DNA of 64,000 nt from Escherichia coli (GTDB taxonomy: Bacteria; Pseudomonadota; Gammaproteobacteria; Enterobacterales; Enterobacteriaceae): the NCBI RefSeq assembly GCF_016026235.1, contig NZ_CP065613.1. The stretch is one strand, 5' to 3'. The translations under genes were made by a program, and so were the position numbers. How positions within the stretch are numbered: position 1 is the first letter of the stretch; every line of letters begins with the position of its first letter. Shown piece by piece: positions 55,204 through 64,000 of this stretch. The notes under the pieces are model-generated. The model was given only the letters and a program-made list of their open reading frames with translations, had not been told where the DNA came from and ran no database searches.

Positions 55204-56496
55204 CTGAGGAATCCCCAGAAAACAAGACAGGCATAGTGAGATGTGATCTAATTGATTGTGCTAACAATTTCAAGGAGATCACCACTATGCCTGCACGTTC
55301 ATTATGCCAAAATTTCCTTAACAATATACTGGCCCCTTTGCATCTTTACCGTCAAAAATCACTGATTGACGCAACTAATGCTGTAATAAATGGCGCTTCC
55401 CTCACACTTACCAGTATCGGGCGTCATTTAACCGGTACGGCATCAGTTAAAAACAAAATAAAGCGGGTGGATCGACTGTTGGGGAATCGACATTTGCAAA
55501 ATGAGGTTTCCACCATTTTTCAGCGAATTACCCAAAAGATTACGCGGGGAATGTCTCGTGTTGTGATACTCATTGACTGGAGTGCTTATCATGCCTCTCG
55601 TTTTCAGCTTTTGCGGGCAAGCCTGGCATGTGACGGGCGTTCTTTACCGTTGATGAGTTGTGTCGTTCCATCATCACAGACAGCGAATGCAGATGTACAT
55701 GAGCGTTTTCTGGAATCGCTTGCTGAGTGCTTTTCCCCGGGACTGATGTCATTGTTATTACAGATGCCGGTTTTCAGGGGCGATGGTTCCAACAGCTCCG
55801 CTCCCGTGGCTGGACCTATATTTGCCGGGTACTGGGCAATCATTATTACAATGTTGGTAATGGCTGGGAAAAGGTGTCGGACTCAGGCACAAAAGCATCA
55901 ACGACAGCAATTTATTTAGGTGAAGGCCTGCTGGGTCGAGATAAAAATGCACAACATGAAGGGCATTTTTATCTTTATAAAAGTAAGCCTAAAGGTCGTA
56001 GATTTAAACGCTCGAAGGAAAGAGCAACCAGACCATCGGTGACGGCTAAAGCTCGTACTGCCGGGAAATCACCATGGTTTATTTTCACAAACAGTACTGA
56101 GTTCTCGCCAAAACAGGTAATGAAATTATACAGCCGTAGAATGCAAATTGAGCAAAATTTCAGGGATGAAAAAAATCCTCGCTGGGGATTTGGACTACGG
56201 TTTGGTGCCAGTCATTCATCCGGGCGGGTCACGGTATTGAGTCTGATCGCAACATTAGCCAGTATCATTATGTGGTTAAGCGGTTTCAGCCTGGAAAACA
56301 AAGGGATACATCATAAATATCAGGCAAATACAGTGAAGCACAGGCGAGTCATCTCGTTATTAAAACTGGCGGAGAATGTGATTCGACATTCTCCACTCAT
56401 ACTAAACACACTGTCACTTGACGCAGGGCTGAAAGTTCTACAGCAACGGTATACCAATATGATAATGGTTTACTAAATTTTCTGGGGATCCCTCAG
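55204..56496 (+). mobile_element. IS10-like (IS4-family) insertion sequence, copy 1 (1293 bp)
   Basis: Terminal inverted repeats CTGAGGAATCCCCAGAAAA / TTTTCTGGGGATCCCTCAG; flanked by direct repeat AGATTGTCC(C). Confidence 0.9.
55287..56476 (+). pseudogene. IS10-like transposase, frameshifted (copy 1)
   Basis: Reading frame splits into ORFs 55197..55919 and 55727..56476; C4 run at 55735-55738 where copy 2 has C5. Confidence 0.85.
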
Positions 56497-57931
56497 AGAT
56501 TGTCCCCGGCGTTGCGACTCAGTGGAAAAGTAATGACAACCGTATCTGGACTTTTACCCTGCGCGATAACGCAAAATGGGCGGATGGCACACCGGTAACG
56601 GCGCAAGATTTTGTCTACAGCTGGCAACGTCTGGTGGACCCGAAAACGCTATCGCCATTTGCATGGTTTGCCGCGCTGGCGGGAATCAACAACGCACAGG
56701 CGATTATTGATGGTAAAGCTACGCCAGACCAGCTTGGCGTCACCGCAGTTGATGCCCATACTTTGAAAATTCAGCTTGATAAACCGTTGCCGTGGTTTGT
56801 GAATTTAACCGCTAACTTTGCCTTCTTCCCGGTGCAAAAAGCCAACGTAGAAAGCGGTAAAGAGTGGACGAAACCCGGAAATCTGATCGGCAATGGCGCT
56901 TATGTTCTTAAAGATCGCGTAGTCAATGAAAAACTGGTCGTGGTACCGAATACCCATTATTGGGATAACGCCAAAACGGTGCTGCAAAAAGTGACTTTCC
57001 TGCCAATTAATCAGGAATCCGCAGCCACTAAGCGTTACCTCGCGGGGGATATTGATATCACCGAATCCTTCCCGAAAAATATGTATCAGAAGCTGTTGAA
57101 GGATATTCCGGGGCAGGTTTATACGCCGCCGCAGCTCGGGACCTATTATTATGCGTTTAACACGCAAAAAGGGCCGACGGCAGATCAGCGCGTTCGCCTG
57201 GCATTAAGTATGACGATAGATCGCCGCCTGATGACCGAAAAAGTGTTGGGAACGGGCGAAAAGCCAGCGTGGCATTTTACACCAGATGTTACCGCCGGAT
57301 TTACGCCGGAACCTTCGCCGTTTGAACAAATGAGTCAGGAAGAACTGAATGCGCAGGCAAAAACTTTGTTGAGCGCAGCTGGTTATGGTCCGCAAAAACC
57401 GCTGAAGCTGACGCTTTTGTATAACACTTCAGAAAACCATCAAAAAATTGCGATTGCTGTAGCATCGATGTGGAAAAAGAACCTTGGCGTAGATGTTAAA
57501 TTGCAAAATCAGGAATGGAAAACCTATATCGATAGCCGTAACACCGGCAATTTTGATGTTATCCGCGCCTCGTGGGTGGGGGATTATAATGAACCCTCCA
57601 CTTTCCTGACATTATTAACGTCAACGCATTCAGGAAATATTTCACGCTTTAACAATCCGGCATACGACAAAGTTCTGGCCCAGGCATCGACGGAAAATAC
57701 CGTTAAAGCGCGTAATGCCGATTACAACGCGGCAGAAAAAATCCTCATGGAGCAAGCACTGATTGCACCAATTTATCAATATACCAATGGACGATTAATC
57801 AAGCCGTGGCTGAAAGGTTATCCCATTAATAACCCGGAAGATGTGGCGTACAGCCGGACTATGTATATTGTGAAGCATTGATGTGATGGGAACTGGCGTT
57901 ACCCTTGTGGATAACGCCAGTGATGTCTGAT

Positions 57932-58963
57932 TTAGCGCCCCTGTTCCGGCGGTGTAATGTTATCCATATACAGCGTCTGGCTGGGGAAGGCAAAGTCCGC
58001 GCCGTGTGACTGCACAATATCGATAATCTTCAAATAAACGTCTTGCTGTGCAGCAAGCCATTCAGCCCATACCGTGGTTTTGGTAAAGCAATAAACCATA
58101 ATATTCAATGACGAGTCGGCAAACTGGTTGAAATAAACCAGTAAGGTTTGTCGCTGGTCGATGGCCGGGTGATTTTTCAGCATCTCACGTACGGCTTCGA
58201 CAATAACGCCCACTTTTGCCGCATCCTCATAACGTAAACCAATGGTCGTGGTAATGCGGCGGTTGGTCATTCGTCCTGGGTTTTCTACGCTGATCGACGA
58301 AAACAGCGAGTTCGGTACGTACAATGGACGATTATCAAAGGTCGTAATTTTGGTAATTCGCCAGCCAATTTCCGCTACTGTACCTTCGATATTTCTGTCC
58401 GGTGAACGGATCCAGTCGCCAATACTGAAAGGACGGTCGAAATAGAGCATGATCCCGGAAAAGAAATTGCTCAGAATATCTTTACCGGCCATACCGACAG
58501 CCAGACCACCAATACCACCAAAGGTCAGCAAGCCAGAAAGGCTCATGCCGAAATGTTCGCCATAAAGCAGAACAAGCACCACAATAATGGTGATTTTGAT
58601 AATGCGCGACATAATCCGCGCACTGGTGATATCGCGACCTTTTTTAATCTGCTGTTTTTCAAACTGATTAATCAGCAAAAATAGCTTAATCGTCAGAATA
58701 ACCGCAATCAGGGACGTACAGATAAAATCGATAACGCCTGGGGTGATAAATTTGAGTTTATAGTTTTCTATAACATAATTAATAATGCTACCAACAGCAC
58801 TGATAATTATGGTGTAGATTAAAAATTGCACCGCATGGAATAAAAAACCTTTTCTTTTACGATTTCCGCGGCGAAACCAAAAGCTCATCAGAATCAATGC
58901 TGCGCAGCTACCGAAAATAATGACCAGATTAAGCGCATTATTTGTAAACAGTTCAGCGATCAT
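57932..58963 (-). CDS. ynaI: MscS-family mechanosensitive channel
   Basis: 343 aa; N-terminal transmembrane helices and MscS beta-domain. Confidence 0.9.
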
Positions 58964-59206
58964 TGTTTTATCAGGCTCCTCCAGATAATTGTCGTCATGC
59001 CGGAAACCCCTGGCGGGGCTATTTTACCGCGACAATTCATTCAGATCATCAATAGTCAGGGAAGGAAGTAGCAACATTAGCTAACTAATCAATGCGTTGA
59101 TTGTAAATCCAGCTAAGAGGTGAGGTTTTCAGAGCAGACAACGGTGAAATGTCATGGTATTGTTACGTTTAGGTAACAAGAAATTTGTCTGCACAAGGAT
59201 TACATC

Positions 59207-59464
59207 ATGATTATGGCGAAACTGAAGTCAGCGAAAGGGAAGAAATTTCTCTTTGGTTTGTTGGCGGTTTTCATTATTGCGGCGTCGGTTGTGACTCGCG
59301 CGACTATCGGCGGCGTTATAGAACAGTACAATATTCCGCTGTCTGAGTGGACGACATCAATGTATGTGATTCAGTCATCGATGATTTTTGTTTATAGCCT
59401 GGTTTTTACTGTGTTGCTGGCAATCCCGTTAGGAATTTATTTCCTTGGTGGCGAAGAGCAGTAA
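59207..59464 (+). CDS. ynaJ: Small inner membrane protein YnaJ (DUF2534)
   Basis: 85 aa with two hydrophobic segments. Confidence 0.8.
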   Translation: MIMAKLKSAKGKKFLFGLLAVFIIAASVVTRATIGGVIEQYNIPLSEWTTSMYVIQSSMIFVYSLVFTVLLAIPLGIYFLGGEEQ

Positions 59465-59473
59465 GTAAAAAAT

Positions 59474-59493
59474 AGGCCCGATAACTCGGGCCT
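59474..59493. terminator. Bidirectional intrinsic terminator between ynaJ (+) and uspE (-)
   Basis: Stem GGCCCG-ATAACT-CGGGCC; minus strand continues with ATTTTTTAC. Confidence 0.65.
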
Positions 59494-59513
59494 TGTCAGT
59501 TATTGAAGAGTCG

Positions 59514-60464
59514 TTAATCGTCTTCTTCGTCATCCAGCTCAACGGGTGTCTGATACTGGTCAGGTTTAATGACCAGCAGGTCGCAGCGAAGATGATCAAT
59601 CACCTGTTCCGCCGTGTTGCCGAGGAATGCTGCTGAAATACCGGTACGTCCTACCGTGCCCAGAACCACAATCCCCGCCTGTAAGTGCTCCGCCAAATCA
59701 GGAATCACCTCTTCTGGCAGACCTTTTTCTACGTGCGTCATGTTTTCATTAATGCCGAATTTCTGCCGCAGAGCTTTCATTGCCAGCAAATGTTGCCCAC
59801 GAATGGCATCGTTATAAACGCTCGGATCAAATTCCGGCAGTTCAATCGCGATATTAATTGGCGTTACTGGGTAAGCGCCAACCAGATGAACTTCGGTATG
59901 GTTGACTTGTTCTGCCAGTTCGATCGTCTCTTTGACCAGTTTTTCATTGAGCGCATTATGATACGGCTCTTCACTGGCGAGATTCACCGCCACCAGCGCC
60001 TTACCTCCTTCCGGCCACGGCTGGTCTTTCACCATCCACACCGGGCTTGGGCATTTGCGTAACAGATGCCAGTCCGTTGGCGTAAAAATCACCGCTTCCA
60101 GACGGTCATGTTGGTGCGCCATTTTTAGCACCAAATCGTGCCCGCCGCTGATCACTTCCTGAATGATGGCTTCGAAAGGACGGTTATGCCAGACCACTTT
60201 AATTTCAATGGGAACGCCAGCATTGAGATAATATTTTGCCTGCTCGTGGATCCAGGCTGTACGCTGGCTGATGACGCCCTGACGCATAGCCGTACGTTCG
60301 TCCGGGGAGAGCAGGGTGGTCATTTCGTATGAGAAGTCATAGATCGGCAAAAAGGCTTTAATTTTGCCACCAATCCGTTGATGTAAATAAACAGCTCGCC
60401 GCAATGCTGGTTGGTCGTCCTGGTTAGGATCGATAACAACGAGCATGTTCTGATACATAGCCAT
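59514..60464 (-). CDS. uspE: Tandem-domain universal stress protein E
   Basis: ORF 59514..60491; probable start [12 protein letters not shown]; two UspA domains. Confidence 0.9.
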
Positions 60465-60615
60465 ACAGGGTCTCCTTACAACAACTGTCAACGCAGTTTG
60501 TAATTAAAAGATTAACCCATATCTGGTGAATGAAACAGTGATGAACCTTCTGCCAGATCAATAAATCAGAAAAATTTAATGATATGACAGAAGGATAGTG
60601 AGTTATGCGGAAAAA

Positions 60616-61368
60616 TCAGGCAACGTTACGCGTATGACCAGCAAGCTGGGCCAGCGCATCGTTATTTTCGATGGTGATGTATTTACCTTTGACTGCCAGC
60701 ATACCGCTTTTCTGGAAGCGACCTAGCAGACGGCTGATGGTTTCTACCGTCAGGCCCAGATAGTTACCGATATCGCCACGAGTCATCGTCAGGCGGAATT
60801 CACGAGGGGAGAAGCCGCGTTGGGCAAAACGACGGGACAGGTTGTAGATGAATGCAGCCAGACGTTCCTCGGCATTTTTCTTCGACAACAGCAAGATCAT
60901 GTCCTGATCGCCTTTGATTTCACCGCTCATCAGACGCATCATCTGCTGACGCAGATTCGGCATTTTACCGGACAAATCGTCCAGCGTTTCGAACGGGATT
61001 TCACATACCATCGAGGTTTCCAGCGCCTGAGCGAAGCTCGGGTGATGGCCGCTGCCGATGGCGTCAAATCCCACCAGGTCGCCAGCTAAATGGAAACCAG
61101 TGATTTGCTCGTCGCCTTGCTCAGTGATGGTATAACTTTTAATCGTACCGGAGCGGATGGCATAAAGCGATTTAAGTTCATCACCAGCCTTAAACAGCGT
61201 CTGGCCTTTCTGAATAGGCTTCTTCCGCTCAATGATATTATCAAGCTGATCAAGCTCATGTTCGTTGAGTGTGAACGGGATGCAAAGCTGGCTGATGCTG
61301 CAATCCTGGCAATGGATAGCACAACCGCCAGACTGAATGCGCCGTATAATTCGCTTTTCCGGGATCAT
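60616..61368 (-). CDS. fnr: Anaerobic global regulator FNR (CRP family, [4Fe-4S])
   Basis: ORF 60616..61425; start at [29 protein letters not shown] (N-terminal Cys cluster); C-terminal HTH. Confidence 0.95.
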
Positions 61369-61387
61369 AGGTCTGCTCAAGCCGTAA

Positions 61388-61401
61388 TTGATATTTGTCA
61401 A
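61388..61401. promoter_or_regulatory. FNR-box-like site in the fnr promoter (candidate autoregulation site)
   Basis: TTGAT-ATTT-GTCAA versus consensus TTGAT-N4-ATCAA; 20-33 bp upstream of the fnr ATG. Confidence 0.5.
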
Positions 61402-61497
61402 TTTTAACATCTTTTTAGGGAGCAAGTAAGTCTAAGCAAACCTTAACAGCAGAGAATTCCGATATTAGATGTAAATATATGTCTATCTATTTGAAAA

Positions 61498-61515
61498 CCC
61501 TTAAGTTGTTAAGGG
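61498..61515 (-). terminator. Intrinsic terminator downstream of ogt
   Basis: Stem CCCTTAA-GTTG-TTAAGGG; minus strand continues with TTTTCAAA. Confidence 0.6.
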
Positions 61516-61562
61516 TAACTTTACATAAAAGTGTGAACAAGCTGGCACAAATTGTTTAATGT

Positions 61563-62078
61563 TTACAGCAAAAGATAACCTTCGTGGCGCAATAACCACT
61601 CTTTTCGCTGAACTCCGCCTGCATATCCGGTCATGGTGCCGTTTCGGCCAATAACCCGATGGCAAGGTACGACGATGCTGATGGGATTCGATCCGTTTGC
61701 CGCACCAACGGCACGCGCCGCGCCAGGGCGGCCCAATTGTTCAGCCAGTTGGCCGTAATGCATTACCTGCCCGCAGGGGATAGTGCGTAGAGTTTTCCAG
61801 ACTTCGCGCTGAAATGGCGTCCCCCCTGTGGCAGTGGGAAGCGTATCAATAATGCTAAGATTACCGGCAAAATAATCACGAAGCTTGTCGCTTAAACCGC
61901 CTGGGTTGGTGGCAGAAATGCGCTCATAGCCTTCTTTGCGATAATGGATGTCCAGCAGCTGCACCATGCGTTCGCTGTACTCTTCCCATTCAACCGCCCG
62001 CAGGCGAAATTGCTCATCGCAAATCACCCACAGTGGACCCAGTGGCGTGGCAATTTTTTCTTCAAGTAATCTCAGCAT
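61563..62078 (-). CDS. ogt: O6-alkylguanine-DNA alkyltransferase
   Basis: 171 aa; active site PCHRV. Confidence 0.93.
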
Positions 62079-62112
62079 CCGTTCTCTCTTAAGACAAACG
62101 TGGGTAAATCCC

Positions 62113-63406
62113 CTGAGGAATCCCCAGAAAACAAGACAGGCATAGTGAGATGTGATCTAATTGATTGTGCTAACAATTTCAAGGAGATCACCACTATGCC
62201 TGCACGTTCATTATGCCAAAATTTCCTTAACAACATACTGGCCCCTTTGCATCTTTACCGTCAAAAATCACTGATTGACGCAACTAATGCTGTAATAAAT
62301 GGCGCTTCCCTCACACTTACCAGTATCGGGCGTCATTTAACCGGTACGGCATCAGTTAAAAACAAAATAAAGCGGGTGGATCGACTGTTGGGGAATCGAC
62401 ATTTGCAAAATGAGGTTTCCACCATTTTTCAGCGAATTACCCAAAAGATTACGCGGGGAATGTCTCGTGTTGTGATACTCATTGACTGGAGTGCTTATCA
62501 TGCCTCTCGTTTTCAGCTTTTGCGGGCAAGCCTGGCATGTGACGGGCGTTCTTTACCGTTGATGAGTTGTGTCGTTCCATCATCACAGACAGCGAATGCA
62601 GATGTACATGAGCGTTTTCTGGAATCGCTTGCTGAGTGCTTTTCCCCCGGGACTGATGTCATTGTTATTACAGATGCCGGTTTTCAGGGGCGATGGTTCC
62701 AACAGCTCCGCTCCCGTGGCTGGACCTATATTTGCCGGGTACTGGGCAATCATTATTACAATGTTGGTAATGGCTGGGAAAAGGTGTCGGACTCAGGCAC
62801 AAAAGCATCAACGACAGCAATTTATTTAGGTGAAGGCCTGCTGGGTCGAGATAAAAATGCACAACATGAAGGGCATTTTTATCTTTATAAAAGTAAGCCT
62901 AAAGGTCGTAGATTTAAACGCTCGAAGGAAAGAGCAACCAGACCATCGGTGACGGCTAAAGCTCGTACTGCCGGGAAATCACCATGGTTTATTTTCACAA
63001 ACAGTACTGAGTTCTCGCCAAAACAGGTAATGAAATTATACAGCCGTAGAATGCAAATTGAGCAAAATTTCAGGGATGAAAAAAATCCTCGCTGGGGATT
63101 TGGACTACGGTTTGGTGCCAGTCATTCATCCGGGCGGGTCACGGTATTGAGTCTGATCGCAACATTAGCCAGTATCATTATGTGGTTAAGCGGTTTCAGC
63201 CTGGAAAACAAAGGGATACATCATAAATATCAGGCAAATACAGTGAAGCACAGGCGAGTCATCTCGTTATTAAAACTGGCGGAGAATGTGATTCGACATT
63301 CTCCACTCATACTAAACACACTGTCACTTGACGCAGGGCTGAAAGTTCTACAGCAACGGTATACCAATATGATAATGGTTTACTAAATTTTCTGGGGATC
63401 CCTCAG
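62113..63406 (+). mobile_element. IS10-like (IS4-family) insertion sequence, copy 2 (1294 bp, intact)
   Basis: Same terminal repeats as copy 1; flanked by direct repeat GGTAAATCC(C); same orientation as copy 1. Confidence 0.9.
62196..63386 (+). CDS. IS10-like DDE transposase (IS4 family)
   Basis: 396 aa; motifs IKRVDRLLGNRHL, ITDAGF, YSRRMQIEQNFRD, YQANTV match IS10 transposase blocks; SD AAGGAG 9 nt before the ATG. Confidence 0.88.
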   Translation: MPARSLCQNFLNNILAPLHLYRQKSLIDATNAVINGASLTLTSIGRHLTGTASVKNKIKRVDRLLGNRHLQNEVSTIFQRITQKITRGMSRVVILIDWSAYHASRFQLLRASLACDGRSLPLMSCVVPSSQTANADVHERFLESLAECFSPGTDVIVITDAGFQGRWFQQLRSRGWTYICRVLGNHYYNVGNGWEKVSDSGTKASTTAIYLGEGLLGRDKNAQHEGHFYLYKSKPKGRRFKRSKERATRPSVTAKARTAGKSPWFIFTNSTEFSPKQVMKLYSRRMQIEQNFRDEKNPRWGFGLRFGASHSSGRVTVLSLIATLASIIMWLSGFSLENKGIHHKYQANTVKHRRVISLLKLAENVIRHSPLILNTLSLDAGLKVLQQRYTNMIMVY

Positions 63407-63554
63407 GGTAAATCCCCGGACCTATCGGCAGACCAACAAGATACCACGCCAGCAACATCAGCAGCCATACCACCAAAAAGATAAGCGGATAGGGCAAGAC
63501 TAACGAATAGTAAGTACCCAGTTTCGCGTCTGGTTTGTCGCAGTCTGATAGCAT
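63348..63554 (-). CDS. Small hydrophobic ORF whose native C-terminus is replaced by IS-derived codons
   Basis: ATG at 63552-63554 (MLSDCDKPDAKLGTYYSLVLPYPLIFLVVWLLMLLAWYLVGLPIGPGIYP...); the frame runs into the IS end at 63406; without the IS it would end ...GIYPRLS ~10 bp before the ogt start; no clear SD. Confidence 0.25.
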   Translation of the reverse strand: MLSDCDKPDAKLGTYYSLVLPYPLIFLVVWLLMLLAWYLVGLPIGPGIYPEGSPENLVNHYHIGIPLL

Positions 63555-64000
63555 AAAGCGATTTTTTGATTTTTCTGCCTGAAGAAATGAGGGCAAGCCA
63601 TCACATGGATCGAGGGTGGGATAATTCCAGTCAGTGAAATTTTACCGTAGGCTATCTGTTATTTGATTCTGTGGCGTGATAGCCGCCAGACACCACTGAA
63701 CTCGTCACTCATTCCCCAATCCCGGCGAGAATGTGGTTATTTACAGAGCTAAAAATGAATAAAAAATAGAGCCTGTCGACATCCGCCAGACTCTACAGTA
63801 CACACAGCAGTGCATCCTCGTCTTAAATCCGGCCTGGGGTCCTTGTGACCGGTGACAGTGTTATAACGGTTTTACCCATCCGTTGCCAATTTTCTTCAGT
63901 GACAGATTTCACGAAAATATAAGTTAAATCATTTGTCTTGTGATTGCATAATCATGCATCGTTAATCGACGAGTAAATTTACCGGGCGAGTAGCCCGTTC

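Follow-up and report, generated by a model that had tools for sequence, protein, structure and literature searches.

Two direct ISEc60 copies around fnr in Escherichia coli: probable independent insertions at preferred target sites

We analyzed a stretch of 64,000 nucleotides (nt) from Escherichia coli (assembly GCF_016026235.1, contig NZ_CP065613.1), referred to below as the window, in which two nearly identical insertion sequences (IS) of the IS4 family enclose the 3′ part of mppA together with ynaI, ynaJ, uspE, fnr and ogt. The element is ISEc60, which is already catalogued. Very probably, the two copies are independent simple insertions that were placed by the target preference of the element. 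For this preference we derived the consensus G|GGGAWWTCCC|C, with a duplication of 10 base pairs (bp) at the insertion site. Both target sites in the window rank at or near the top of all positions scored with a matrix built from other ISEc60 sites.

The terminal 19-mer CTGAGGRATCCCCAGAAAA occurred exactly four times in the 64-kb window, compared with no occurrence in shuffles, and marks the inverted repeats at the two ends of each copy (IRL next to the transposase start, IRR at the far end; Table 1). These inverted repeats are 19 bp long with one mismatch. The two copies lie in direct orientation at a spacing of 5,616 bp. They differ in total by one substitution and one 1-bp indel, i.e., a T in copy A (55325), private to this copy, versus a C in copy B (62234), and a run of four C in copy A (55735-55738) versus five C in copy B (62644-62648). 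With the four termini mapped and only two differences found, we confirm what a first-pass annotation, made from the sequence alone, had described as two near-identical IS4-family copies in the same orientation about 5.6 kb apart.

Both copies are flanked by perfect direct repeats of 10 bp each, AGATTGTCCC at copy A and GGTAAATCCC at copy B. At the corresponding empty sites of E. coli 2013C-4974 (locus L002), AGATTGTCCC and GGTAAATCCC were found once each. A duplication of 9 bp, with an additional C counted as part of the IS, was considered and rejected: the right terminus CTCAG is fixed whereas the next base varies (A or G), so that by symmetry the left end is CTGAG and the duplication has 10 bp. 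Since each copy has its own perfect duplication and the targets are single-copy at the empty sites, we conclude that the copies are independent simple insertions. This had also been the initial proposal, of which the independent origin stands and the repeat length had to be corrected from 9 to 10 bp.

The assignment to ISEc60 was made at both nucleotide and protein level. Over the full 1294 bp, the window copies shared 99.5-100% nucleotide identity (megablast) with RefSeq and PLSDB copies annotated as 'IS4-like element ISEc60 family transposase', ISEc60 being the name used by NCBI PGAP annotation for the RefSeq copies. Copy B was 100% identical to the ISEc60 copy of RMDEC364. The protein of 396 amino acids (aa) exactly matched an Enterobacteriaceae entry named 'IS4-like element ISEc60 family transposase'. 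Moreover, the transposase matched PF01609 and the IS4-family model NF033591 of NCBIfam (360.5 bits, cut-off 152), and it contains the Y-(2)-R-(3)-E-(6)-K signature as LYSRRMQIEQNFRDEK (from a BLASTP alignment to NFR, with DEK read from the DNA). Compared with catalogued ISEc60, nothing essential differs in the window, where copy A has its private substitution and a possibly artefactual 1-bp deletion. The closest distinct relative that we saw is an unannotated IS4-family transposase on a Shigella flexneri plasmid (H105, NZ_CP026099.1, 99735-100925), which is 51.6% identical to that of ISEc60; IS10 is farther away at 36%.

Among 5,426 complete E. coli genomes searched with megablast, only 14 carried ISEc60 at full length, one of them with 38 matching places on a single chromosome. 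In enteroinvasive-type E. coli, annotated copies lie on chromosomes as well as on large plasmids, and plasmids of Shigella dysenteriae and E. albertii also carry the element. A scan of the GTDB species representatives (100,044 genomes) for the ISEc60 termini gave one match, with one end only, and ISEc60 is hence too rare there for target sites to be obtained from species representatives. The sole match lies in Candidatus Erwinia dacicola, an insect symbiont (L003, 906-930; contig NZ_MAYS01000218.1). In a literature search we found no description of an ISEc60 target preference, the name being mentioned only in passing.

ISEc60 junctions were gathered by exact look-ups of transposase variants and from other fetched loci, which together cover a few related E. 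coli and Shigella genomes. At 19 distinct sites the duplication had 10 bp, and at one site 11 bp; several ISEc60 copies had unmatched flanks, which mark rearrangements. The aligned sites were symmetric, with G dominant at positions -1, 1 and 2, C at positions 9, 10 and +1, and an A/T-rich core, from which the consensus G|GGGAWWTCCC|C was derived. We then built a position matrix from 17 sites, leaving out the two sites of the window, and scored 61,372 window positions from which the IS copies and one duplication each had been removed. The ogt site ranked second of 61,372. For the mppA site, the rank was 15th in the true register, but first when the register was moved by 1 bp. Both insertions therefore lie where the preference predicts them, and the preference alone can explain the closeness of the two copies. 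The earlier suggestion of a target preference unlike that of IS10 is borne out by these sites, but not the asymmetry ascribed to it: the motif is symmetric, and the TCCC noted at both insertion sites is one half-site of a palindrome.

A similar target is known from IS186, which inserts at GGGG(N6/N7)CCCC, a sequence that is rare in E. coli and is used repeatedly and in both orientations (PMC5009759). ISEc60 and IS186 both favour palindromes whose G-rich and C-rich arms enclose a short core, and both insert in either orientation. The mppA site, GGGG-AGATTGT-CCCC, fits the IS186 motif exactly (N7) and is used by both elements. They differ in the core, as the ISEc60 matrix favours GGGG-N4-CCCC, i.e., 4 bp, compared with N6/N7 for IS186; the ogt site corresponds to GGG-N5-CCCC. 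They also differ in the duplication made at mppA, which has 11 bp for IS186 (GGAGATTGTCC) and 10 bp for ISEc60, shifted towards the C-run. The GGAGATTGTCC duplication was seen where IS186 at mppA is a simple insertion. Records of an MppA product truncated to 80 aa come from 677 E. coli and Shigella flexneri contigs, and the interrupting element was IS186 (1339 bp) in seven of the ten contexts listed for this product. An exact look-up of an 87-aa MppA′ open reading frame found none on record, in contrast to the 80-aa version, which matched. At two loci, IS186 occupies the mppA hotspot with non-matching flanks (L020, 10239-12354; L022, 10239-11576). The far flank in L020, GGATTAATCCCC, matches the third-ranked motif site of the window, at about 16348 near the puu genes. 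By these flanks, the mppA hotspot is also a breakpoint for larger IS186 rearrangements that remove or relocate the fnr side.

The transposases of IS186 and ISEc60 share only the signature of the YREK region (BLASTP E = 0.008, 22 aa), and their best NCBIfam models differ (IS4_2 and IS4_1). Their common target preference is therefore not explained by close relatedness. Also, the IS186 termini (CATAAGCG...) are unrelated to those of ISEc60. It is possible, if on the whole doubtful, that ISEc60 is a highly site-selective IS whose GGGG-AWWT-CCCC target with its 10-bp duplication converged on that of the distantly related IS186. This target also resembles the inner part of the terminal repeat of ISEc60 itself, GGRATCCCC. 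Such a likeness between target and terminal repeat would suggest that one transposase surface reads both the ends and the target.

In other lineages, the same sites were occupied again. ISEc60 was found at the mppA site in forward orientation in RMDEC364 and in reverse orientation in three loci (L021, L025 and L027). Two of these loci, L021 and L025, have a copy at each of the window sites; the copies are mutually inverted, and the whole segment from ogt to the 3′ part of mppA is flipped. Next to ogt, these loci read AGATTGTCCC, reversed IS, GGGATTTACC, and next to the 3′ part of mppA GGGACAATCT is followed by a forward IS fragment. Swapped halves of the duplications together with a flipped segment are the signature of homologous recombination between inverted copies. 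Repeated insertion of ISEc60 in both orientations was also found at two further sites, uidA-uidR and hokB-ydcA. At hokB-ydcA, the duplication has 11 bp in L031 and 10 bp in L039, where the orientation is the opposite one. In GCA_031665585.1 (L005, 1418-4015; also L006), two full tandem ISEc60 copies with a 10-bp spacer lie at hokB-ydcA; the outer duplication is GGGATTTTCC, and the spacer GGGATTTACC, different by one base, is the reverse complement of the duplication at the ogt site. In this tandem, one copy seems to have inserted into the target duplication that the other had made before. We hence have evidence that mppA and ogt are hotspots to which insertions return and which IS186 uses as well, and that recombination between copies has occurred there naturally.

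The order pgrR-mppA-ynaI-ynaJ-uspE-fnr-ogt-abgT, native in annotated homologous loci, is kept in the window (Table 1). Copy A inactivates mppA, which is cut after codon 80. Copy B lies in the ogt leader, its duplication 25-34 nt upstream of the ogt ATG, and the extended -10 element TGGTATCTT ends 55 nt upstream of the ATG. For the ogt promoter, the -10 hexamer TATCTT, an extended -10 and two NarL sites, at -44.5 and at -77.5, are described (PMC7419079). By its position, copy B separates ogt from the -10, the -35 and both NarL sites, and ogt would thereby have lost NarL control. A scan of 61950-62350 for promoter and terminator consensus sequences revealed nothing that could serve as a promoter reading out of the IS towards ogt.

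Table 1. Coordinates of the ISEc60 copies, their target duplications and the surrounding genes in the window.
Feature	Position	Strand	Remarks
Terminal 19-mer CTGAGGRATCCCCAGAAAA	55204	+	
Terminal 19-mer CTGAGGRATCCCCAGAAAA	56478-56496	-	
Terminal 19-mer CTGAGGRATCCCCAGAAAA	62113	+	
Terminal 19-mer CTGAGGRATCCCCAGAAAA	63388-63406	-	
ISEc60 copy A	55204..56496	+	1293 bp; IRL 55204-55222, IRR 56478-56496
ISEc60 copy B	62113..63406	+	1294 bp; IRL 62113-62131, IRR 63388-63406
Target duplication A, left	55194..55203		AGATTGTCCC
Target duplication A, right	56497..56506		AGATTGTCCC
Target duplication B, left	62103..62112		GGTAAATCCC; within ogt 5′ leader, which is also abgT 3′ remnant
Target duplication B, right	63407..63416		GGTAAATCCC
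mppA 5′ fragment	54965..55207	+	80 codons; stop TGA from first ISEc60 bases; RefSeq pseudogene at identical RMDEC364 junction
mppA 3′ portion	56497..57881	+	inactivated by copy A
ynaI	57932..58963	-	low-conductance mechanosensitive channel, intact
ynaJ	59207..59464	+	intact
uspE	59514..60464	-	intact, 316 aa by homology to annotated loci
fnr	60616..61368	-	intact, 250 aa by homology to annotated loci
ogt	61563..62078	-	34 nt native upstream left; promoter now right of copy B
Rest of abgT 3′ remnant	63417..63538	-	holds displaced ogt promoter, extended -10 TGGTATCTT

Beyond copy B (63417-64000), the abgT-abgB-abgA-abgR operon is missing from the window, with an abgT 3′ remnant of about 130 bp and an abgR remnant left. 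The abg operon is likewise reduced to a 144-bp abgT remnant in 2013C-4974, the E. coli lineage most similar to the window (99.4% identity). As this loss is common to the closest lineage, it predates the IS insertion. In 2013C-4974, the abg remnants are followed by genes for an AraC-family regulator, HlyD and MFS efflux. On the other side, an alpha/beta-hydrolase gene that lies upstream of pgrR is split by an IS110-family element (about 50870-52317), which related genomes have annotated as ISEc20 and which L021 and L025 lack.

The first-pass annotation had called the element IS10-like. IS10 makes a 9-bp duplication at a symmetric hotspot, NGCTNAGCN. The termini of ISEc60 and IS10A are alike, with CTGA(A/G)G(A/G)ATCCCC in common (CTGAGGAATCCCC and CTGAGGGATCCCC for ISEc60, CTGAAGAATCCCC and CTGAAGGATCCCC for the IS10A copy), and in both elements GAATCC lies at the end where the transposase gene starts, whereas the far end has GGATCC, which contains a Dam site. 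Both also encode DDE/YREK transposases and are of similar size, 1294 bp for ISEc60 compared with 1328 bp for IS10. However, the transposases of IS10A and ISVsa5 are only 36% identical in amino acid sequence to that of ISEc60, the duplication has 10 instead of 9 bp, and the target G|GGGAWWTCCC|C is different from NGCTNAGCN. By these three differences we ruled out that the element is IS10 itself. In a megablast search against plasmids, only records annotated as ISEc60 or IS4 family were among the matches listed. The near-identical termini make 'IS10-like' fair as a description of resemblance; as a statement of identity it had to be given up. In both window copies, the Dam site is in IRR and the GAATCC in IRL, and shortly before the start of the transposase gene there are further GATC sequences (IS positions 42 and 74). 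This arrangement suggests that ISEc60 may be under Dam methylation control of the IS10 type.

Four other accounts of the arrangement have to be weighed against two independent, preference-guided insertions. That the two copies are an assembly artefact, i.e., a duplicated or misplaced repeat, had been raised as a possibility in the initial annotation. Assemblies are well known to go wrong at repeats of 1.3 kb, and the homopolymer indel of copy A in the window is not found in a second assembly. Yet in this independent assembly of the same strain (GCA_900449985.1, L028), 17,367 bp aligned to the window with no mismatch and a single gap, and the two-copy structure is reproduced. Moreover, a short-read contig of 5,952 bp from GCA_001907545.1, along with four similar ones, begins in the right end of copy A and stops in the left end of copy B, as is expected when assembly of a two-copy structure is limited by its repeats. 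Together with the different, perfectly matched 10-bp duplications, the distinguishing substitution and the related strains that have ISEc60 at both sites in another configuration, the two assemblies contradict an artefact, which we regard as hardly credible. It is a good deal less far-fetched, although still improbable, that the occupancy of mppA and ogt goes back to descent or recombinational transfer of one ancestral insertion rather than to hotspots. The ISEc60 insertion in mppA of RMDEC364 agrees with copy A in the exact base, the orientation and the duplication, its IS equals copy B in every position, and although its flanks differ by 0.6-1.9% from the window, the nearest mismatches lie only 131 bp and 334 bp from the IS. 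This forward insertion could thus have been inherited or moved by recombination instead of having arisen independently. Against shared descent stand the opposite orientation at mppA in L021, L025 and L027, IS186 at this position in many lineages, and two further sites used in both orientations, one of them with both 10-bp and 11-bp duplications; also, both window sites are top-scoring with a matrix from unrelated sites.

A different reading is that the 8.2 kb from copy A to copy B work as a composite transposon, which would have come here, or would move, as a whole. The first-pass annotation had rightly described a composite-transposon-like architecture. Two IS copies enclose passenger DNA, both outer ends (IRL at 55204, IRR at 63406) are complete and point the right way, copy B supplies an intact transposase gene (62196-63386, 396 aa), and composite transposons with direct repeats are known, e.g., Tn9. 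On paper, the unit would hence be competent. The ISEc60 pair and Tn10 alike fit a mobilization of the DNA between two IS, whereas the IS copies are direct in the window and inverted in Tn10, and there is no sign that the window unit moves. No single duplication surrounds the whole unit, as its outer flanks AGATTGTCCC and GGTAAATCCC differ and each copy has its own repeat. Genes inside and outside the unit stand in native E. coli order, and all contexts recovered for mppA fragments were the native chromosomal locus. In the collections searched, the 8.2-kb unit was found in no second genomic context, only at this native locus, and the internal 5.6-kb segment occurred on plasmids only as chromosome fragments labelled as plasmids, with full synteny, and as an Enterobacter segment of 80% identity. 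In IS10-type elements, transposition drops steeply with length and the transposase prefers to act in cis. Movement of the unit as one piece is therefore, in our judgment, highly improbable. It had also been argued that one intact transposase could mobilize the segment, which holds on paper; that only one is intact is uncertain, and no mobilization was seen. In the window, the transposase frame of copy A is broken by the missing C (four C versus five in copy B), leaving an N-terminal open reading frame of 210 aa at 55287-55919, and an identical 210-aa product is on record at four other loci. The sole gap between the window and L028 is this C-run indel: L028, otherwise identical over 17.4 kb, has five C and a full 396-aa gene in copy A. 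Among the assemblies with the 210-aa product, GCA_900449095.1 shows numerous split genes, a sign of indel errors. Long-read assemblies typically contain errors in homopolymer length, and since the frameshift is absent from an assembly of the same strain, it may be a sequencing error in one assembly. That copy A is truly defective, with copy B as the single transposase source of the unit, is thus a serious possibility that falls somewhat short of probable.

We return to two independent ISEc60 insertions placed by target preference, against which several points have to be held besides the possible inheritance of the RMDEC364 insertion. The 19 sites may reflect selection as well as the transposase. 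Our picture of the activity, mechanism and target choice of ISEc60 was drawn from sequence and comparison. The defectiveness of copy A is uncertain, and read-through from the displaced promoter across the IS into ogt is possible. By analogy with IS10, ISEc60 would move by cut-and-paste, and it would have landed in the two sequences of the neighbourhood that best fit G|GGGAWWTCCC|C, making a 10-bp duplication at each.

Once in place, the two direct repeats of 1.3 kb could recombine. RecA-dependent recombination between them would delete about 6.9 kb and leave one hybrid IS flanked by AGATTGTCCC and GGTAAATCCC. The earlier proposal that recombination would delete fnr, uspE and ogt is sound in its logic, and it has a precedent at this very locus. 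There, ynaJ-uspE-fnr are lost from a W3110 stock by frequent recombination between two IS5 copies on either side, and MG1655 stocks with fnr deletions are known as well (PMC2072959). The IS5 pair of these K-12 stocks and the ISEc60 pair of the window thus have in common the locus and direct IS repeats around fnr. They differ in that IS5 is of another family, encloses a shorter interval (from downstream of ynaI to upstream of ogt) and was found in laboratory stocks with the deletion observed, whereas for the window the deletion is only predicted. Among about 30 distinct ISEc60 junction pairs, we found no deletion derivative, i.e., no copy with AGATTGTCCC to its left and GGTAAATCCC to its right, in a sample that is small and for a product that has no unique open reading frame to look up.

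The plasmid matches to the internal segment were rejected as evidence of ISEc60-mediated movement, as they were mislabelled chromosome fragments or an unlinked Enterobacter block. The latter was found in 56 Enterobacter plasmid records (H99-H103 and 51 others), in which a segment is about 80% identical to ynaI-ynaJ-uspE-ogt. Those records with listed annotation have an APH(3′)-I gene within the match, and 57 of the 65 matching records were typed as conjugative. We take this to mean that plasmids of another genus have picked up a homologous chromosomal block, independently of ISEc60.

Both the element and this type of arrangement are already known, and for an IS-rich E. coli genome the arrangement is an ordinary one. 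As a routine IS configuration, it explains the mppA knockout and how ogt would have been cut off from nitrate/NarL control. It also places fnr, the master anaerobic regulator, between direct repeats able to delete it, which bears mainly on work with this strain and on the interpretation of fnr-negative variants. Our analysis adds the ISEc60 target motif, the hotspots common to ISEc60 and IS186, and natural recombination between copies at both sites. If ISEc60 were indeed a site-selective element convergent with IS186, the sites in mppA and in the ogt leader would be recurrent and predictable breakpoints, and the fnr-uspE segment would be a naturally invertible and deletable cassette in enteroinvasive-type E. 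coli and Shigella lineages. The main general result is the target motif, which predicts where ISEc60 lands and explains the repeated use of sites by ISEc60 and IS186. It should be useful for reading parallel pseudogenes and inversions in the genomes of Shigella and enteroinvasive E. coli.

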